Assembly: GCA_951406725.2 (NCBI GenBank)
Contig: OX597815.1
Span: 201,810,001-201,874,000 of the forward strand
Source of the DNA: Octopus vulgaris
Lineage: Eukaryota
DNA length: 64,000 bases
Direction of reading: 5' to 3'
In this document: one piece after another, positions 6,899 through 62,105 of the stretch
Layout of the letters: every line of letters starts with the position of its first letter
How positions within the stretch are numbered: the first letter of the stretch is position 1
Program-made: the position numbers and the translations under genes
The notes under the pieces: generated by a model
What the model saw: only the letters and a program-made list of their open reading frames with translations
Database searches by the model: none
What the model was told of the DNA's origin: nothing

Positions 6899-7428
6899 TT
6901 TTGTTAAGGTTATTTCAACAGAAATTATAGCCAGCTCTGATTTTTGCTACAACGCTTTGTATCGAAATGTCAGATGTAAACAAACAATTAGAGCGGAGAC
7001 AAAATGGGTAACGAGTGTATACGGCATATTTCGTGGGGTTTTTCACCTTCATTAGCAACCATCTAACCCACTCTTCCCTCGGAACATATTGCTTATATAG
7101 CCACAGCATACAGCAGTGTAAAGTTACTGTATTTGCCAATTTACGTATTAAACGAATTCCTGGAATGCTCCAGGAATGCGGTTAATATCCAATAACTAAA
7201 CACCGCTGTATGCAGTGGCTATATAAGAAATGTGTTCAGAGGGGAGAGTGAGTTACATGGGTAATGATGAAGGGGGCGGGGCACACCCACACGAAATATG
7301 GCATATACACTCATTACCCATTTTTGCCTCTGATCTCATTGTTTGTCTATTTCTAACACCACGATGCGAAACGTTGTAGGAAAAATCCTGTGCTGGTTAC
7401 AATTTCTGTAGAAAGAACCTTAACAAAA
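6899..7428. repeat. ~530-bp imperfect foldback palindrome (MITE/foldback-like)
   Basis: Left arm ttgttaaggttatttcaacagaaattatagccag matches the reverse complement of ctggttacaatttctgtagaaagaaccttaacaa; centre attcctgga-atgc-tccaggaat at 7156-7177. Confidence 0.85.
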
Positions 7429-12166: not shown

Positions 12167-12931
<765 letters not shown>

Positions 12932-13901: not shown

Positions 13902-15060
13902 CAGGGTGCGTAAGTCATTTGAGGACATACCATTTCGGGGTCATTGCTGCATTATTTGCTAACTCTGTATAATCTTCGTTTCAGAAAATAATACTAAACA
14001 AATGAAGAGGTAAGGCGTTGCTGTGGTTATAGAGGCTGAGTATAACGATTTAGAAATATCTCGATCTTTAAAAGTTGCCAGATCTTTCGTCTACAAAATT
14101 TGTAAGGAGTTAGAGATTGAAGATGGAAACGTATCGCCATTATCAAAACGTAAAAAAGTATTTTGAACTCTCTGAAATCATTAGAACACCTGAATGTATC
14201 CAGCAAGTTCAACACACCATTGATTACAATCCCAGAAAAATCCATAGGGTCAATTGAAAAAGATTTCCATGGGTCAGAAGAACAGGCAGAAATTTTGCCC
14301 ACGACGACGTCAGATATATGTCTAATATAATGAGGAAAGGTCAATTTGTCAGAAAAAGCAAAGGAAAATCACTATATAAGATCTAAGTGATCTAAGCAAA
14401 CTGAAAAGTGCAGCAGAAGATTATACTTGGCGTTTCTCAAACAAGAAAGACTTTAACCATGATCAAAATATTAACAGAAGAAATGAGACATGGTTATGTG
14501 CAGACCCTTCTGAAGTTCCAAGTGTTATGCATACATAGACAATTTTCTCCATCTGTCATGGTTCATGGGTTGTCAGCAATGAAGGACATGTTATGTCTCC
14601 ATACTTCTTTCCACAAGGCCTTAGATTTAACTCTGCCACCTACAAGGACGTCCTGGAAACTATCTAGACAGTCTATGCAATTGGAGGCACTATGTGTTTC
14701 AGTAAGACTCTACACTATGACACATGGCTCTGGTAACACAGGAACGGATGATTGAAAATGTTCATGATCCCATAATTCCTAAATTTTGCCCTCCTTATTC
14801 TCCAGATTTCAATCCATTGGACTATAACATGTGGAGGGTTGTTGAAATAGAGAGGTCAATGAACGCGCCCAGCGCACCAATAATTCTTTAAAAGCTGCCA
14901 TAATCAGAGTAATGTCCAAAATGAACCAGAACCACTTGATTCGAGCATATAGATGCTTTACATCTGATATAGAAGCAGTTGTAGAAGCTGAAGGTGATTT
15001 CATTGAATAACATTATAGAAAAGAAGGTTTATTTTTATGCGTCTAATATAATTACCAGAA
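13902..15060 (+). mobile_element. Decayed Tc1/mariner (DD37D/maT-like) DNA transposon
   Basis: TA then cagggtg terminus; LEISRSLKVARSFVYKICKELE HTH; PPYSPDFNPLDYNMWRVVE; C-terminal IEAVVEAEGDFIE*. Confidence 0.85.
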
Positions 15061-20089: not shown

Positions 20090-21180
20090 TGCTTAAAATA
20101 AACCTTCACCTTCAACAGCTGCTTCTATTTGAGATCTAAATCAACTGCTCGAATCAAGTGGTCCTGGTTCATTTTGGACATACTCTGATTATGGCAGCTT
20201 TCAAAGGTTTTTTGGCATTATGGGCGTGTTCATTGACATCTGTCTCAACAACGCTCTACATGTAATAGCCTAATGGGTTGAGATCTGGGGAATTAGGAGG
20301 CCAAATGTTAGGGGTTATATGATCATGAAAATGTCCTGCCATCCTTTCCTGTGTTGCCAGAACCATGTGTGATAGTGCAAGTGTTAATGGCCTACCACTG
20401 TATACACATATGGGCGCCCACTGTATACACTCTCTAGACAGGGGTTAGCAATTGATTCCAGGACCTCATTATTAGCGACAAATTTAACTCTAAGACATTG
20501 TGGAAAGATGTAAGGTGGCATCTCATGTACATTGCTGATAAGCCATAAATCATGACAGCTGGAGAACACTTGGAATTTCCGAAGCGTATGCACATAACAT
20601 CTCTCTTTTCTTCAGTCACCTTGTTGATCATAGGCAAAGTTTTTCTCGTTGCATTTGTCTTCTGCTGCATATTTAAAGTTTGCTTAAAAAACATTTAGAT
20701 CTTGTGTAGTGATTTTCATTTCCTTTTTCTGAAAAATTGACCTTTCTTCATTATATTAGACATATATCAGACGTCGTCGCGGACAACATTTCTCACTGTT
20801 CCTTCTGACCCATGGAGATTTTTTGCAATTGACGTCATGGATTTTTCTGGGATTGTAATGAATGTTCTGTTGAACCTGCCGGATAAATTCAGGTGTTCTG
20901 ATTAGTTTAGAGAGTTTAGAGTGTTTTTTTTAATGTTTTGATACTGGCGATATGTTTCCATCATCAATATCTAACTCCTTACGAACTTTGTAGACGAAAG
21001 ATCAGGCAACTTTTTAAAAATCGGGATATTTCTAATTCGCTGTACTCAACCTTTACAATTACAACAGCATGCCTCCTAATAATACTGTGGGTCTGCCATT
21101 ATTATTTTCTCAAACAAAGATTATACATATTTAACAAATAATGAAGCAATTACACGAAAATAACATTCCTCAAATACCAC
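20090..21180 (-). mobile_element. Second copy of the DD37D/maT-like transposon, inverted relative to 13902-15060
   Basis: Reverse complement homologous along its length, e.g. WPPNSPDLNPLGYYM and IEAAVEGEG. Confidence 0.85.
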
Positions 21181-21188
21181 ACGCACAC

Positions 21189-45061: not shown

Positions 45062-46980
45062 ATTCTTCAACATGGGTAGAAATATAGGAAAAATAGAAGT
45101 TTGAAAATACACAGGGAATAGTTAAAATCTGTATTATTATTAGTTTAAAAGATTTAACCGGTTTCACAATTTACACTCATTTTCGATAAGTTGAAATAGA
45201 AAGATGGGGCTTATGTCGCAGCTGTCTTCTGACTTGTGTTTGAAGCTTACCCCCCTATTCTTATAGGGAGTTCGGTGGCTCAGATTAGTATACGTTTTGA
45301 ATAGAGGATCGACCCATTACTGGAACTGAAAATGTTTGGCTCCATAAGTTGAGACTAATTGACTGTAAATGTCCAAATAATAAATGCTCTGAATGTTTTC
45401 TGTCAAGTATGTATAGAGAATGAACACGTGATTAGAGTTTAGAACCTTTTGTACTTAACCCGCTACGTCCGTGCGTTAGTGTCACGTGACAGTATACTTA
45501 GCGCTTAAAAAGAAAGCTGATACGGTTAAATAAACATATTTCGTTACAATCAAGGCACTCCAATTTTACTCTGTCTGGTGTGAGAGTATAAAGGAGTCGC
45601 TTGTATGTGGTCCAGTGATTAACATTTAGGTTGTTAGCTATGTAGGTTCCTCACTTTAAGTGGCAGAATGAGTTTTGTGTGTGAATATTTATATTTGTAT
45701 GTACTCGGTTAAAGTTTGTTAAGATTCGGTTCGTACACTTGTATGAAAGTATTTCCTTTGTTTATCCGTGTTTCATCAGTGGTATTCACTGAACATAGGT
45801 AGAGTAGGAAGAGCTGGAATTTGGATGACTTTTTTTTTTTTGGCACATATGTCTATTTATTCACTCAATGCAATCTGTCTAGTACTAGGATCTCGCATTT
45901 GTTTTCGGTGAATGGTCAGCCGATTTTTTAAAGTAAGCTTTGCTCGACATATGTAATCATCATTACATCGCTAATATTTGATAGTTTACTACCATCCCCC
46001 TTGTTTTACAATTGTTTCTGGAGAGATTACATCTTTTCTTTGGTGGCAGCTTTCATTATTGTAAAAACAAATTACGAACATAGTAAATTCCTTTAAGAAC
46101 AGGTAAAGTGATTTTTAAGGTAAAAATCTGTCTTGCTTTGAAATTGTATGTTGTGTCTTCCATAAGCTTGATGAAAATCCTGGGACTGAGGCGACCACAC
46201 TTTTTCACTGTTGGTGTTGGAATTGTTAAACGTAATTTTGCACTTGTGAGAAATGTTTTAAGGGAATTTGATTGTATTTTACTTTTGATTATTTTGCGTA
46301 CTTCGAAAGCTTGTTTCATTTTGGGGGTTTCTTTTAGTAGTGTGATATTCTCGTGGATAACGTTACAAACCTCTGTTCCTCGGGTTGTGTGTTGTAATAA
46401 AGGGTAGAATATTAGATGTATCTGTAGAGGTTTTCGTTGGTTGTAGTTCTTAGGTATTTATTGTTTTGGCATATTTTATCCCGTTATCTGTTAATATTAA
46501 TGGATATTGTATTTTAAGTAGTATTGGTTTTAGTTCCTGGAGTCTTTCATTGCGCATCTCCGGTTTTAGACAAATGTGTAAATTCTTCTTGCTAGATTAA
46601 AGGGAATGTTATACTTTGTGCGTTTGGGATGGAATGACGAGAACAGAAAGGCGGCGAGCTGGCAGAAACGTTAGCACGCCGGGCGAAATGCTTTGTGGTA
46701 TTCCGTCCACCGCTGCGTTCTGAGTTCAAATTCCGCCGAGGTCGACTTTGCCTTTCATCCTTTCCGGGTCGATAAATTAAGTACCAGTTACGCACTGGGG
46801 TCGATCTAATCGACTTAATCCATTTGTCTGTCCTTGTTTGTCCCCTCTATGTTTAGCCCCTTGTGGGCAATTAAGAAATAAGAAAGTATTGTTTAGAATC
46901 TGCTTGTTTGTAGAGAATGTGTTGCAATGTTTTTATCGCATTTGTTGATTAGTATATCCAATAATAGTTGTTGAGTCACA
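45062..46980 (-). mobile_element. Decayed Penelope-like element (RT C-terminus, GIY-YIG endonuclease, 3' region ending at (TA)n)
   Basis: LPFITTHNPR; LTLKNRLTIHRKQMRDPSTRQIALSE..DICA; FIQVYEPNLN; degenerate hammerhead remnant gaaaccggtt at ~45155-45185; interrupted by a SINE at 46648. Confidence 0.75.
46648..46885 (+). mobile_element. SINE family A inserted in the Penelope-like element
   Basis: Near-identical to 847-1077. Confidence 0.9.
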
Positions 46981-46999
46981 TTTATTCACTCACTTTTGA

Positions 47000-48442
47000 T
47001 AAGACTATAATATTGTTATGTTACAAATATGCTACAAAAATAGAAATTAATGTGTAATTTTTTCTATGTTCGTAATTTGTTTTTACAATAACGAAAGCTG
47101 CCACCAAAGAAAAGATGTAATCTCTCCAGAAACAATTGTAAAACAAGGGGGATGGTAGTAAACCGAAGGCGAGAGTATCGAGAGAGACAGGAGATGGGTC
47201 TTTCTCAATATCAGCAAACGCATGCTTCAGCGCGACAATTAGAGTCTGAAGAGAGAAGGAAGATAAGACTTTCACAAGATCAGCAAATACATGCTGCGGC
47301 ACGACAGCTGGAGTCTCAATACAGACGGAAGATGAGACTTTCCCAAGATCAGCAAACGTGTGTTGCAGCACATCAAATGGAGTCTCAAGAGAGAATTGAA
47401 GTGAGACATTCCTAAGATCAGCAAAGGCCTGCTGCAGCACGTCAGACTGATGAAACCTTCCCAAAATTTCCAATTGAAACTAATGGCATGTGCGGCTCAG
47501 TCGGTAATGTAAGATTTCCATCACTACCAGCTCCTCTTCAACCTTTTATAGATCTTCTGGATGGCATTTCCATCAAGTCAAAGGATTTTATGAACAATGA
47601 GCAGTATCGCCCGGCGTTGCTCGGGTTTCTAAGGGAAATAACTATATAAGCATTTTTAGAGATGTAAAGTATAATAGCCATCTCAATATGGCTAAGCACA
47701 TAGGAGGCGGTGTTACTGTAGCTTTTTACGTTCTGAGATTTAATAATAAATTTTTAGAGAGTTACTTCCCTTATATATGCCAAAAATGCATTAAAAAATG
47801 GGAAAAAATTGATGGTAATTTTTTTTAAATCGTAGACTCATCGTAGACACGCGCTAATACCCAGAAGAGTTCGATATGAATCACGAATATAAGATACCCG
47901 GTTTTGGTTAAACTGCACCGCAAAATGTGGGAGTAGTTAGGAATCTAAATCGTAGGAGACAGACAGCACACAACCTCTCTTTTATATATAAAGATATTAG
48001 ACAATGCAATTCTGCTTTTAAAACGAAATCGTTTGATGCATCTAAGGAGATAGTTAAACATGGATTTACGCCAAGCTTCAAATTTCAAGGGCAAGTCTAT
48101 CACCTCATTGCTTTCCTGTTACCCACAAATGAACAACTACACTTCCTCTAAATTTACAACAATGTGTCGTGTTAGACGCAGCGCCGACTGCTGCAAAGGA
48201 GAGTATATCCACTCACAGCTTTTCGGTGCATTTAAAAATCACATAGCCGCTCACCCCCAATTTCCATGACCGGTTGGAGCCTGGAATATGTTAAACAGAG
48301 GCATGACATGTCGCTATCTCTAACTAGCAAATCTTTTACTCCACAAATGTTTTGTCGTCAATGCTGCACGTTCCCGTATCACCTATTTCAAAATATATAC
48401 TATGCCATTTTAATTCCGAGCAACGCCGGGTATCTCTGCTAG
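47000..48442 (+). mobile_element. Deleted Helitron retaining the N-terminal part of RepHel and its 3' end
   Basis: 23-aa repeats (LESEERRKIRLSQDQQIHAAARQ); GMCGSVGNVRFPSLP..SKDFMNN/IRQCNSAF..GFTPSFKFQGQVYHLIAFLLP; 3' hairpin ccgagcaacgccggg then CTAG at 48439-48442; 5' boundary approximate. Confidence 0.85.
47598..47994 (-). mobile_element. Non-autonomous Helitron nested in the RepHel coding sequence
   Basis: Same termini as 16961-17346; removing it restores the frame M-N-N-I-R-Q-C-N-S-A-F at an A|T site. Confidence 0.85.
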
Positions 48443-56961: not shown

Positions 56962-57860
56962 GGATTGAGCATCGACATCAAGAAGACTCACTTACTCTAC
57001 TAACCTCCTCCCAATGCCTGTGTTGACAACCCGCCATCGATTCGACTCGAAGGAATTCCACTGGAAAATGTGAACCATTTCTGTTACCTTGGGAGCCATC
57101 TGTCAGCAAAGTAGACCTCAGCAATGAAATCTAACACCGTCTGAAGTGTTCAGGAACAGCTTTCGGCAAGTTTCGAATAAGAGTTTTTGCTGATCGGGAC
57201 ATCCGAACCGAAACCAGACTCATGGTGTACAGGGCAGTCATTATTCCAAACCTCCTTTACGCATCCGAAACCTGGACCCCGTATAGTCACGACCTCAAAG
57301 CGCTCGAGAAATTTCACAAACGCTGTCTTCGGAAGATCAGCTGGGAAGACAGAAGAACAAACGTCAGCGTGCTACAAGAACCAAATATGACCAGCATCGA
57401 AGCCTATGTCATCAAAGGCCAACTAAGATGGAGCGGTCACGTGGTTAGAATGACTGACGAACGACTTCCCAAACAGATCTTCTACTCCCAACTCAAAGAC
57501 GGCAAGCGTACAAAAGGAGGCCAGAAGAAACGCTACAAGGACTCCCTAAAAACGAACCTCAAAAAGTGTGACATCGACTTCATTAACTGGGCGGAAACGG
57601 CAAAAAACAGACCACTCTGGAAAACCACCATCCATGAGGGAACGGCGACTTTCGAGTCGAAAAGGTCTGCAGAGCTGGAGGAGAAAAGACGACGACGGAA
57701 GGAGCGCCAACAACAACCACGTGTGACTTTCCCATCCGGCACTAGATGTCCGCACTGCGACCGATCTTTTCAAGCAAGAATTGGTCTTATCGGTCACCTA
57801 TGGACTCACCAGTAAATTTGCGCGAAGACCATCATCCTCGATCTTGAGGGATTGCCATCA
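56962..57860 (+). mobile_element. 5'-truncated RTE-clade LINE inserted in (TA)n
   Basis: [21 protein letters not shown], then a 197-aa open C-terminus; 3' end catcctcgatcttgagggattgccatca. Confidence 0.92.
57222..57815 (+). pseudogene. RTE ORF2 C-terminal region (RT thumb plus C2H2 finger)
   Basis: VYRAVIIPNLLYASETWT, LRWSGHVVRMTDERLPKQIFY, GGQKKRYKDSLK, CPHCDRSFQARIGLIGHLWTH. Confidence 0.92.
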
Positions 57861-58173
57861 TATATATATATATATATATGATGATGAAAAACACCCTCAT
57901 ATATATATATATATATATATATGAGACAAACACCCCCGGCTGCCGGAACTGCATCCAGGAACACCGTGTTTCTTATTTTGATAATCAGTGAATAAACTTC
58001 ACTGAATATAGATATATACAATTACGAAGTCGAGGCAAATATCACCAGCCGACCTATTTTTTTGGGGGAGTCGTTATTCTGGTGTGTTTGTTTTGAGTGC
58101 GTCATTGTGAAGAGGTTGTGAGTTCGAGTTCGTTGCTGGAGGACGTGGTGAATTTTATTTGGAGATTTTGAAA

Positions 58174-59247
58174 ATGCAAGACCAGACGTATGCGAGAGCA
58201 GCAGGCAGAGGCCTGGTTGCCAGTGAACTAGAAATGGAAGAAGTGGTAGTCGAGAAGAAGACTTTAGAAAAATATTTCGACAGTTTGAAGAGGGAGGGTG
58301 ACTGCGTGAGAGTCACACCGTCCGAAGAAGAAGAAAACAACGCGGAGAAACGTATGATAACATACAGGACATGGTGTGTGGCGTCAAGAAAAATAGAAGT
58401 AGCAAAGACGGAAGAAATAGAGAAATGTCTTCAAGGAATTGAGGGTGAACCTACCTTTTTCAACAGAGGAAGAAAGTATGCCACAGTGGTGGTACACTTT
58501 AAAAATGGAAATGAAGCAAGAAAGAATGCAACAAACATTCTGAAATCTGAAAGGTGGACTTTATTACCTAGTTACTGCGGAAAGAGGGCAGTCACAATAA
58601 GAATTAGTAGGATTTCGCCCGAACTTAACATGGAGAGGATATTAGCGGCAGTAGTTTTCAACTGCAAGGAAAGTGTGGAGGTGGTGAAGGTGGAAAAGTC
58701 AACAGAAGTTAAGTGGTGGGGATATGCGGTACAGGTTCTGGCACATATAACCGTGCCAGACCTATACAACGTCCCGGAGGAGTTGGTCTTCCCTGATGAG
58801 ACACGGCTTAAAGTCGTGGTAGAGGGAAGACCTCCAGTTTCTTATAATTGCAAATTAAGAGGCCACATAAAGGATGTGTGCCCGCTGGAGAAAACGATAA
58901 CACCGCAGGCTGTAACGAAGGAGTGGAAAGATACCTGTGTGGAGGAGGAAGAAGTGCAGGAGGAAACGAAAGCAGTGGAGAGGCAAACGGAGGAGCAGCT
59001 AATTGAGGATGTGGAAGAAGAACGTGCAAGTGCAGAGGATGAAAGAACAGAAGATAGGAATAGAACAAGGGTGGAATCACCACCGAATGTTCTAAAAAAG
59101 AAAGAAATCAAAAGCAAGATAACAGAAGAAAAAGAAGAGAGAACGTGCAAAGAAAAGGACGAACAGACAAAGACAGAGGTAAACCTAGAATGGAGAAAAA
59201 AAGTGAGAGAACAGTTGGATGCTGTAAAAAGGGAAAAAGACCTGTAG
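58174..59247 (+). CDS. L1/Tx1-type ORF1 (gag-like) nucleic-acid-binding protein: putative RRM-like region, zinc knuckle, Glu/Lys-rich coiled tail
   Basis: Longest ORF in the window (362 codons from 58159; first ATG 58174); N-terminal TYARAA; VVEGRPPV(S)YNCKLRGHIKDVCP is CX2CX4HX4C with the first Cys codon TGT changed to TCT. Confidence 0.72.
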   Translation: MQDQTYARAAGRGLVASELEMEEVVVEKKTLEKYFDSLKREGDCVRVTPSEEEENNAEKRMITYRTWCVASRKIEVAKTEEIEKCLQGIEGEPTFFNRGRKYATVVVHFKNGNEARKNATNILKSERWTLLPSYCGKRAVTIRISRISPELNMERILAAVVFNCKESVEVVKVEKSTEVKWWGYAVQVLAHITVPDLYNVPEELVFPDETRLKVVVEGRPPVSYNCKLRGHIKDVCPLEKTITPQAVTKEWKDTCVEEEEVQEETKAVERQTEEQLIEDVEEERASAEDERTEDRNRTRVESPPNVLKKKEIKSKITEEKEERTCKEKDEQTKTEVNLEWRKKVREQLDAVKREKDL

Positions 59248-59534
59248 GAAAATACCTGAAAGTATTCGTGTTGTACGTGAAAGACACAGAAGTGGAAAAA
59301 AGACTTGCAGGTAGGAAAGGATTGATTAGGGTTAAATTACACCCAAAACTGCATGATGACGATGTCAAAGGGGTAGTTGTAGATAAAGGAACATTTACTG
59401 AATTGAAAAGTATGTTTTATCAGGTTTATTTAACGTATTATGTATGTTATGACAATTTGCCAAATGTGATAGACCAGATGGAATTAACAAAGTACATTAC
59501 GGACGAACGTCCAACAGAACTGGAATTTATGTAA
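59145..59534 (+). CDS. Probable frameshifted C-terminal continuation of the ORF1-like protein; unknown domain
   Basis: Overlaps the end of ORF1 in the -1 frame; non-repetitive, protein-like sequence RPVGKYLKVFVLYVKDTEVEKRLAG... Confidence 0.45.
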   Translation: MQRKGRTDKDRGKPRMEKKSERTVGCCKKGKRPVGKYLKVFVLYVKDTEVEKRLAGRKGLIRVKLHPKLHDDDVKGVVVDKGTFTELKSMFYQVYLTYYVCYDNLPNVIDQMELTKYITDERPTELEFM

Positions 59535-59802
59535 TTGTAAAATTGTAACATTGTAAATTGTAAAATGTAAAATTTTATTTTGAACTGGAATATATGTAAT
59601 TGTAAAATTGTAAAATGTAAAATTGTATTTTAAACGGAACTGCGAGTTGGGGAGTTCGTAAGCCGTTCCATCTAACTCATTACACATAATTCATCTTTAT
59701 TTCATATTTTATTTTTTACTTTATGTACCCCATGTCCCGTCTTGTAATGTCCCCTCTGCATTCGGGCCATCGTGCACATAATAAAGATATAATATCACCA
59801 GC

Positions 59803-59878
59803 TGACCGGTGTCTGCTACTCTAGGCCGATGAAGGACAACGATCCTGAAACACGGTGTCCCTAGATGCAGTTCCGGCA
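59803..59878 (+). ncRNA. Type I hammerhead ribozyme, core variant CCGAUGA
   Basis: Stem I tctagg/cctaga extended by ctgc/gcag and ccgg/ccgg; CCGATGA 59826-59832; stem II agga/tcct; GAAA 59847-59850; stem III cac/gtg; GTC cleavage after 59859. Confidence 0.8.
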
Positions 59879-60094
59879 CCCGGGGGTGTTTGTCTCCCCT
59901 TCGTATATGTATATAAGGACACAGGGAAAAAAATGTGTCAAAGCTATCAGGAGGCGTTCGATGCTTCCTAGGGCTATACAGCGGTGGTGTACCCCCTACT
60001 GTCACGTTCTTGCTAGATTGACAGTATACACCCATTCTATCGCCCCACCACCGTACATGTCTCTACGAGAGATTTAGAAATTCAATATTTCTTA

Positions 60095-60146
60095 TTATAT
60101 ATGTATATATATATATATGTATATATATATATGTATATATGTTCAT

Positions 60147-60222
<76 letters not shown>

Positions 60223-60228
60223 TATATT
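60095..60228. repeat. (TA)n microsatellite
   Basis: Direct reading. Confidence 0.95.
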
Positions 60229-60450
60229 TAATCAATATAGGGTAGCAAAAAATTCAATAGAAATTTTTTCGCCACCAGCGGTCCAGTGAGAATGAGTAAA
60301 TAGTCGCAGACTATATATATATAAATTCAACAATATAAAGGAATGACCCTGGTAGGCCATTCGTCTCACTAGAAAGAGCAACCATACTCAAACCGCTAAA
60401 TAGTAGTAATTCAGAAATTAAAGGTAAATCAAAAACATTTACCTTAATCA

Positions 60451-60559
60451 TCCTTGGACAATGCATTGTTTCAACGTAATTTATGGCAAAACCAGCCTAA
60501 TTAAATTAAATTAAATTTAATCAAGTCAATCAACCATTGGTTCGTCTCATCGGCAAGGA
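60451..60559 (-). ncRNA. Type I hammerhead ribozyme (left arm of the palindrome)
   Basis: Minus strand: tccttg-CCGATGA-gacg...cgtt-GAAA-caatgcattg-TC-caagga; palindromic stem III. Confidence 0.72.
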
Positions 60560-60585
60560 AACCAGAAGATTTATTCCTCCTGGTT

Positions 60586-60694
60586 TCCTTGCCGATGAGA
60601 CGAACCAATGGTAGATTGACTTGATTAAATTAAATTTTATTTAATTAGGCTGGTTTTGCCATAAATTACGTTCAAACAATGCATTGTCCAAGGA
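60586..60694 (+). ncRNA. Type I hammerhead copy (right arm) with GAAA mutated to CAAA
   Basis: tccttg-CCGATGA-gacg...cgtt-CAAA-caatgcattg-TC-caagga. Confidence 0.6.
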
Positions 60695-60814
60695 TGATTA
60701 AGGTAAATGTTTTTGATTTACCTTTAATTTCTGAATTACTACTATTTAGCGGTTTGAGTATGGCTGCTCTTTCTAGTGAGACGAATGGCCTACCAGGGTT
60801 ATTCCTTTATATTG

Positions 60815-60873
<59 letters not shown>

Positions 60874-61233
60874 TACATATAAATATACGTACATATACAT
60901 ATATGTGTGAGTGCGTGTGTGTGTATTTGAATGAAGTGTTAAGGGGTATTTGTGCGCTGCAATATCAATTTCAGTATGTTTTACACTAGCATTAAAAATT
61001 TTCGAGATCCTATTGCACTTGTGAGAAAAGCAATGCTTCTGAAGAGAAGAAATATGTACATTCTTTAATTTCAATACCGTCAAATCCGATTACGGGTATG
61101 ATATGTACATCAATTCATAAATGCATACATCCATACACACACTTATGTGCTAGTATACATTATACATATATACGTTTACATACGTATGCATGTATGTATA
61201 TAGATATATGCCTATATACATAGGTAGAGAGAA

Positions 61234-61240
61234 AGATAGG

Positions 61241-61301
<61 letters not shown>
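61234..61301. repeat. (GATA)n microsatellite
   Basis: Direct reading. Confidence 0.95.
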
Positions 61302-61347
61302 GCACACAGGCTTGTACATCATGTACCAGCGTACAAAAAGTCACACG

Positions 61348-61407
<60 letters not shown>

Positions 61408-61408
<1 letters not shown>

Positions 61409-61701
61409 GATATGGGATAAAAATTCTCGAAAAAATGTTTATCAATGGCCAGCATATTAAAAAATACCTTTAATGGTTAAATTTCATAAACAACTTATAA
61501 ACAAGGGCCACAAAAAATTCTAATGCCAAATATGCTGAAATGTAGACTTATTCGTCAATAACCATATCATTTATCACTATAGGCACGTATCTCGAAAGAC
61601 ACGTGCCTATAGTGATAAATTATAAGGTTATTGACGAATAAGTCTACATTTCAGCATATTTGGCATTAGAATTTTTTCTTTTGCCCTTCTTTATAAGTTG
61701 T
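61408..61701. mobile_element. (TA)n-flanked element with a 212-bp foldback (61490-61701)
   Basis: acaacttataa...cactataggcacgtatct-cgaa-agacacgtgcctatagtg...ttataagttgt. Confidence 0.8.
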
Positions 61702-61724
61702 ATATATATATATATATATATTTA

Positions 61725-62105
61725 TATATAATAATAAAAGAGAGATTGTACGTGTGAGCGTGTGTTCCTTATACATTCCCACACCGAGTTGCCGATTTTG
61801 ATGTATGTGGTATCAAAAGATTCAGTACTATTTCCGCTACCAACTAAACTTTATTTTCATTGACATATTTCCATTACAACAATTTTAAATTATAATCTTT
61901 CCAGAACTCAACTATCTTAAGTATTTTATACGACGTCTACGACAATGACGTCACATTTTCTATATGAGCATGTACCTTAAAAGACACCCATCATTTCGAC
62001 AAACACCTTCACTCGCTCATTATATTTCTCCTTCTCTGTGTTTCTCTCTCTCTCGCACACACACACACACACACAGACGTTCATTTCATATACACGTACA
62101 TACGT
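61725..62105 (+). mobile_element. 5' part of a Helitron-like repeat
   Basis: Starts tatataataataaaag; homologous to 52800-53020 and 54460-54570. Confidence 0.5.

Follow-up and report, generated by a model that had tools for sequence, protein, structure and literature searches.

A hammerhead-bearing palindrome in an octopus genome, best read as two head-to-head 3' ends of a Penelope-like element

Introduction

Endonuclease-bearing (EN+) Penelope-like elements (PLEs) often carry an inverted, 5'-truncated copy of themselves and favour microsatellites as targets (Craig et al., 2021, PMC8557442). Pairs of pLTRs inverted head to head, with palindromes where they meet, have been described, and their authors attribute them to self-priming on an antisense template (Arkhipova et al., 2013, PMC3846280). 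In work with a purified PLE protein, both strands of AT-rich DNA were nicked and extended, and cleavage by the PLE hammerhead ribozyme proved protein-assisted and dispensable for insertion in vitro (PMC11167929).

Hydra-clade PLEs insert into (TA)n and carry type I hammerheads with a 4-bp palindromic stem III near the 3' end (PMC8557442, File S2). One of them comes from Octopus bimaculoides: Hydra-1_Obim bears its type I motif, whose stem III is a 4-bp palindrome, no more than about 100 nt from its end. In Penelope-13_HM, an inverted 5'-truncated copy places a hammerhead on both strands (PMC8557442). In Schistosoma, dual hammerheads lie on opposite strands 100–700 bp apart (Cervera and de la Pena, 2014, PMC4209133); dimer-type PLE hammerheads have also been reviewed (PMC6765202).

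Here we analyse a locus within a 64,000-nt window of the Octopus vulgaris genome (GCA_951406725.2, contig OX597815.1, positions 201,810,001 to 201,874,000); all coordinates below are those of the window. The locus had been predicted, from the letters alone, to be a half-kilobase palindrome made of two back-to-back hammerhead ribozymes and to represent a young inverted pLTR pair from a PLE.

Results

A near-perfect palindrome between TA tracts

An inverted-repeat search pairs 60312–60568 with 60577–60833 at 97% complementarity, with 8 nt between the arms and 13 nt of TA included in each, confirming the near-perfect inverted repeat between (TA)n tracts of the original prediction. Eight of the 257 positions are mismatched, seven of them within the 244-nt non-TA arms, and there are no indels. 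Among the inverted repeats listed in the window (pairs up to 3 kb apart), this one is the longest. The left arm abuts (TA)6 at its outer end and the right arm (TA)20, and no target-site duplication is discernible in the flanking TA tracts. Beyond the left run lies an 84-bp segment that has no second copy within the window (Table 1); EN+ PLE insertions are typified by a target-site duplication and an optional one-sided tail of 30–40 bp.

Several other signals in the palindrome were considered and set aside. Rfam matches at its centre are generic microRNA-hairpin scores, far below gathering thresholds. A 42-codon frame from the ATG at 60694 was rejected as coding, having no Pfam match and with most family changes non-synonymous or frameshifting, and the 47-nt GT...AG stretch at 60703–60749 was considered as a PLE intron and left unsupported. 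Hairpins were taken from a sigma-70 scan, the remainder of which is irrelevant to a eukaryote. We also observed that a 9-base word and a scrambled core-like heptamer at 60771–60790 echo the start of the hammerhead at 60592–60604, possibly a relic of an older tandem duplication.

The arm belongs to a multi-copy family with an asymmetric centre

Part of 60230–60820 was found in 20 of the 24 public sequencing runs listed (nine studies, four organisms), with a best share of 0.34 and none covering at least half. The runs listed with a part of this stretch include no RNA run, which says nothing on expression. The interval 60556–60824 was then aligned to contigs of four of the 24 runs listed (X1, X2, X5 and X8, from three organisms), and 391, 3, 147 and 272 contigs, respectively, fit it. 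The arm is thus a member of a multi-copy family. Exact-motif scans of metagenome contigs and viral contigs gave no match. The supplement that holds the published Octopus Naiad and Hydra consensuses, a file in which line breaks can hide matches, was scanned for five short motifs of the arm or the family, and none matched exactly.

Because contigs of the three larger runs (3, 2 and 4 contigs) align from 60565 and carry unrelated sequence upstream, the spacer is native element sequence. It follows that the right arm is 256 nt long and the left arm 240 nt, and that the family is not palindromic by default. The inverted repeat originally proposed thus holds for the arms, but the centre is asymmetric, with 60565–60580 native to the right arm. 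Family sequence upstream of the centre is known for 30 letters only. One X2 contig holds a solo single arm starting at 60569 beside (TA)n, and one X8 contig has a different opposite-strand joint, 60570/60662, with 53 letters on its short side. None of the contigs in the four aligned runs covers 60556–60564, and so none spans the junction of this locus itself; a contig can show that a sequence is present but not that it is absent, and the insertion may be a private one.

Two further observations concern the 3' part of the arm. In the three larger runs, the aligned depth of the stretch 60727–60790 exceeds that of the hammerhead core or of the 3' end by 15- to 100-fold, which suggests a much more abundant family that shares this module, although summed depth is not copy number. 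The 3'-terminal hairpin at 60783–60804 has a 3' strand that is altered yet still pairs in other subfamilies, as read from loose contig ends behind 60792.

Each arm carries a type I hammerhead with a C4 core

Each arm holds a type I hammerhead that faces outward, on the plus strand at 60586–60694 and on the minus strand at 60559–60451, as originally predicted. Both motifs have a 6-bp stem I, a 4-bp stem II, a self-complementary 12-nt stem III region and a GUC cleavage triplet. The motif is placed 131 nt from the end that joins (TA)n, a position like that of the hammerhead in Hydra-clade PLEs. Also as predicted, the minus copy has GAAA and the plus copy CAAA. The prediction missed two features common to both copies: the core reads CCGAUGA and so departs from the canonical CUGANGA, and a G.U wobble occupies 10.1–11.1. 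The GAAA, the A15.1–U16.1 pair, H17 and the three stems are present in the minus copy and in the family; the plus copy fails at G12, which is changed to C. What had been called a long loop II is a 66-nt stretch that folds as a hairpin extension of stem II and not as an open loop. By folding, stem III is worth 0 kcal/mol as a lone hairpin and -15.1 kcal/mol as a two-strand duplex.

Table 1. Features of the palindrome, its surroundings and the neighbouring element.
Feature	Position	Strand	Remarks
2-kb element with PLE-type ends	57923–59915		No room for an RT; possible extension to about 60095
Long (TA)n-rich microsatellite	60096–60227		Left of the insertion
84-bp unique segment	60228–60311		Two TA tracts around it; candidate host flank or one-sided PLE tail
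Short (TA)n run	60312–60324		Adjoins the outer (3') end of the left arm
Left arm	60325–60564	-	240-nt inverted copy of element positions 60581–60820
Left-arm changes	60345, 60381, 60532		Absent from the variants listed for aligned contigs
Left-arm type I hammerhead	60451–60559	-	CCGAUGA core (U4C at 60552), GAAA intact; predicted cleavage between 60457 and 60456
Centre	60565–60580	+	Native element sequence, single occurrence (contig alignments)
Right arm	60565–60820	+	256-nt 5'-truncated 3' end of the element
Right-arm type I hammerhead	60586–60694	+	Stem I 60586–60591/60689–60694; stem II 60599–60602/60669–60672
Right-arm hammerhead core	60592–60598	+	U4C at 60593; C in place of G12 at 60673; cleavage predicted after 60688
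Hairpin extension of stem II ("long loop II")	60603–60668	+	66 nt; more variable part of the motif in the family
Right-arm changes	60632, 60638, 60673		Differ from most aligned contigs; the left arm has the majority letter
Self-complementary stem III region	60676–60687	+	12 nt; dimer-type
3'-terminal hairpin	60783–60804	+	9 bp; mirror at 60362–60341
(TA)20 tract	60821–60860		Adjoins the 3' end of the right arm

A strict scanner, with thresholds set after the motif had been seen, reported two hammerheads in the window, namely the minus copy and another motif at 59820; 100 block-shuffled windows gave none. Rfam returned no match across the whole window at the gathering score, hence no hammerhead, and at E ≤ 10 none of its 75 matches within 57800–61800 was a hammerhead.

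The aligned contigs place these motifs in a family context. Position 60673 is G in 98–100% of the aligned depth and 60672 is C in 96–99% (X1, X5 and X8). Since the family accordingly has GAAA, the CAAA of the plus copy is a local mutation; since it has a G10.1–C11.1 pair, the G.U wobble, which the X2 contig also has, marks a subfamily. Across 60586–60602, which includes core position 4 (60593), and across 60674–60688, the alignments list no variant. A more diverged subfamily, seen in loose ends of three contigs each in X1 and X8, has the C4 core too, and a further relative has the canonical U4 core (one contig in X1, two in X8), so that C4 and U4 forms both exist. Aligned depth over the core is about one third of that over stem III, and the core halves of many copies are therefore unaligned, with position 4 unread.

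The original prediction expected homologues to conserve the core and stems. The invariant stretches just described agree with this. In stem I, the 3' strand varies at 60689 and 60692, and loose ends carry the complementary letters on the 5' strand; these two double-sided changes would be compensatory, but they stand on separate, unphased contigs. Polymorphic positions number 0 of 31 in the core and stems II and III against 9 of 66 in the extension, a borderline difference (Fisher p=0.054) that is open to alignment bias and makes the lower variability of the core and these stems suggestive only. We consider that the hammerhead of the parent family is probably a structurally maintained, dimer-type ribozyme with a C4 core, which is likely to be slow or protein-assisted.

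Origin of the palindrome

The most plausible reading of the palindrome is a head-to-head joint between two 3' ends, each 5'-truncated, of a PLE that targets (TA)n or of a non-autonomous derivative. We judge it likely that it stems from a single, fairly recent insertion of such an element, with a Hydra/Neptune-type end, into an octopod genome. The locus shares several traits of EN+ PLEs: a type I hammerhead in the terminal region (with a variant core), 5'-truncated and inverted copies, and a microsatellite or AT-rich target. The inverted pLTR pair of the original prediction is thus upheld in so far as 3' ends lie in (TA)n and the family, the solo copy and the second joint accord with it, and from these we infer PLE parentage.

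In the mechanism that we propose, the RT-endonuclease of the element would nick a (TA)n tract and copy the RNA from its 3' end, and copying would end about 256 nt further on, at a point 27 nt beyond the hammerhead core. The mirror half could then form if the cDNA end folded back on itself at 60565–60580, or if a second priming started from the other strand and two cDNA ends annealed at 60565–60580; at this palindrome the two routes cannot be told apart. Either would yield a head-to-head pair of 3' ends without an ORF. The first and last 4 nt of the centre pair at three of four positions around an 8-nt loop, which makes this pairing a candidate fold-back or annealing point; the microhomology is weak evidence because a 3-of-4 stem is available at 80 of 226 element positions (35% background).

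Outside the junction the arms differ at six positions, split 3:3 relative to the aligned contigs (Table 1). This split fits independent mutation after insertion, as in a real locus decaying neutrally. The divergence, 6/241 or 2.5%, suits the earlier description of the insertion as young: the repeat clock of PMC13282606 puts 2.5% at about 3.5 million years (1.3–7.5), which would be an underestimate if gene conversion acted between the arms.

Other origins were weighed against this insertion. An arm derived from a non-LTR retrozyme, that is, a tandem, ORF-less hammerhead repeat with a circular RNA, of which the palindrome would be an inverted stub, is unlikely. It would agree with the lack of any visible ORF and with the deep 60727–60790 segment, which suggests a larger non-coding family sharing the module; yet the locus has no head-to-tail repeat, no joint leading straight from the 3' end to the 5' part is listed among the aligned contigs, the 5' end of the solo copy abuts (TA)n and the family 3' end joins TA. 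As retrozymes have been proposed to be PLE derivatives (bioRxiv 10.64898/2026.07.22.740005), this explanation overlaps with the PLE one.

TA flanks suit some DNA transposons, and the window holds other palindromes free of hammerheads (6899–7428 and 61486–61705), both of which could point to a MITE-like fold-back DNA element that moves as a whole palindrome, with the hammerheads as passengers or chance occurrences. This is largely refuted, and we hold it to be highly improbable: the family runs through the centre into unrelated sequence and includes single arms and a different joint, and the hammerhead motif occurred in none of the 100 shuffles. Upstream continuation, the single-arm copy and the second joint together lead us to reject a MITE, and fit 5' truncation and inversion that occur repeatedly. 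Assemblies are known to have difficulty with inverted PLE structures (PMC8557442), and a fold-back chimera, or two copies joined in error, could have produced the palindrome in the library or the assembly. A chimera from one molecule gives identical arms, however, so the six substitutions, without indels and with three on each side, count against it; a comparable inversion joint also occurs in an independent run, and an artefact appears very improbable. That selection has retained the palindrome as a source of host dsRNA, as an ADAR substrate or siRNA hairpin, is extremely improbable. The stable predicted duplex described below would suit such a role, but the arm differences create mismatches and are evenly split, as neutral decay predicts, and no host gene was recognised nearby among ORFs of at least 120 aa, a threshold by which short exons would be missed.

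Predicted folding of the locus RNA

Equilibrium folding of the minus copy gives stem I a probability of 0.82–0.89 when the arm is folded by itself, and the value falls to 0 for transcripts that begin at 60596 or farther out; stem I is predicted to be lost from any transcript whose start lies some 20 nt or more inside the opposite arm. The hammerhead fold costs 3–4 kcal/mol relative to the free fold, with monomer probabilities of about 0.3 for stem II and 0.02 for stem III. Folding of the complete palindrome yields -401.6 kcal/mol, compared with roughly -24 to -27 kcal/mol for a hammerhead fold, and the predicted read-through duplex has uninterrupted runs of 90 bp (plus) and 126 bp (minus).

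Because each sense hammerhead is preceded in read-through RNA by its own complement, a duplex of about 240 bp is expected in place of the ribozymes. The locus is thus probably inert as a ribozyme, the plus copy lacking G12 as well, and the earlier designation as two hammerhead ribozymes, though right about the anatomy of both arms, is overstated: one copy has lost G12, both have U4C, and stem I is predicted to be lost in read-through RNA. The accompanying proposal that read-through RNA forms long dsRNA is thermodynamically sound, and depends on transcription. Such dsRNA would in principle be a good ADAR or Dicer substrate. Heavy A-to-I editing is a known trait of the animal group to which the host belongs. 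The X2 contig, which is another copy, has no A>G places; that X2 is RNA is a guess, and the contig is uninformative on editing.

A second C4 hammerhead and other repeats in the window

A second type I hammerhead, short-looped and also with a C4 core, lies at 59820–59865, 0.7 kb upstream of the palindrome, whose arm it does not resemble in sequence. That one and the same core change occurs in two unrelated families speaks for tolerance of C4 in this lineage. The motif lies at the end of a 2-kb element (57923–59915) with TA flanks, a 17-nt direct repeat (58038 and 59791) and, at 57923–57972, a 50-bp inverted copy of its own 3' part that starts at GAAA. Its ORF at 58174–59247 encodes a CCHC zinc knuckle, with a likely frameshift continuation to 59534; it has 301 relatives at E ≤ 0.001 and is ZCCHC3/ORF1-like by language-model features. 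The best relatives of this ORF, which lies 1.1 kb upstream of the palindrome, are from Octopus bimaculoides, O. sinensis, O. vulgaris and Argonauta (six of ten looked up). The element is possibly an undescribed non-autonomous one.

Further repeats were observed elsewhere in the window. At 61486–61705 there is a 220-bp palindrome (90%) with a TA tract at its right end and about 79 bp of unique sequence before a left TA tract, a layout that matches the flanks of the hammerhead palindrome; a loose scan found no hammerhead core in it. An old 530-bp palindrome (74%) at 6899–7428 likewise yielded no hammerhead core. At 45984–47163, inverted terminal repeats of 104 bp (98%) surround a broken minus-strand frame, interrupted at about 46648–46880 by a copy of a common SINE-like repeat; we take the frame to resemble a PLE RT thumb and endonuclease start, without Pfam support. 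The 3' part of a LINE, presumably RTE/Bov-B-like, lies between TA tracts at 56963–57860, and its ORF (57135–57815) ends in a C2H2 finger. Two decayed, oppositely oriented copies (75%) of a transposase-like element lie at 13906–14995 and 20102–21186, with peptide motifs that we assume to be Tc1/mariner-like. Finally, at 12273–12931 a 332-bp unit occurs twice in tandem (96% identity), and each copy begins within a TA run.

Discussion

The palindrome is ordinary retroelement debris of a described kind, and a clean record of a Penelope-type inversion, with one native centre and unequal arms that both end in (TA)n. Its modest novelty would be a family-level C4 hammerhead in an animal retroelement. 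If the C4 core with its long extension cleaves, with the help of dimerisation or protein, catalogues built on CUGANGA and short loops undercount animal hammerheads. The natural C4 and U4 sister versions within the family could be used to test the role of hammerheads in these elements.

A bolder proposal, which we regard as possible but rather doubtful, is that octopods harbour a lineage of (TA)n-targeting, PLE-mobilised elements with functional C4 hammerheads, including both the palindrome family and the element at 57923–59915. The head-to-head product would then mask both ribozymes, as an inherent off switch, and give rise to long dsRNA. If such a lineage exists, the 66-nt extension of stem II could provide a contact that compensates for C4, and the class would escape any search based on CUGANGA.

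In the literature we found no C4 hammerhead in an animal retroelement, bearing in mind that the published tables are descriptor-based and that Lunse et al., on dimeric PLE hammerheads, may list C4 or long-loop forms. The word "hammerhead" does not occur in the available part of the O. vulgaris repeat annotation.

Among known systems, the closest likeness in the available parts of the literature is to Hydra-clade PLEs, by hammerhead shape and (TA)n target only; membership of that clade, or of PLEs, is not established because no RT/GIY-YIG ORF has been linked to the arm. EN+ PLEs have a single ORF with a PLE-type RT and a GIY-YIG endonuclease, and Hydra-clade proteins carry the motifs RWK, DKT and CxCX5C and lack CCHH. 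All 34 rows of the hammerhead table of PMC8557442 have CUGA, and loop II measures 3–10 nt in its Hydra rows, whereas the palindrome has CCGA and a 66-nt extension; the table comes from a descriptor search and may therefore have been unable to list C4. The minimal metazoan PLE hammerheads described by Cervera and de la Pena (2014, PMC4209133) share the palindromic stem III and the predicted dimer with the motifs found here. The palindrome departs from them in its longer stem III (12 nt), its stem I of 6 bp, the lack of an extra base behind A9, the long extension of stem II and C4; every supplement row examined has U4. For the core change itself, a precedent is a viroid U4C hammerhead, whose activity in vitro was considerably lower while infectivity was kept (Ambros and Flores, 1998, cited in Perreault et al., 2011, PMC3088659); in the palindrome, by comparison, C4 appears common to copies of an animal repeat family from three organisms, in what is a predicted ribozyme.

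Animal non-LTR retrozymes (Cervera and de la Pena, 2020, PMC7229834) resemble the arm in being non-coding and AT-rich, in their type I hammerhead and in having mollusc examples, but they are head-to-tail tandems of 150–450 bp, whereas the palindrome is head-to-head. That orientation is shared with the inverted 5'-truncated pLTR insertions of EN+ PLEs (PMC3846280; PMC8557442), as are the unequal arms, a small palindrome at the junction, a microsatellite target and the termination of both copies at the 3' end of the element. The palindrome differs from the inversions described there in that both of its copies are too short for any ORF.
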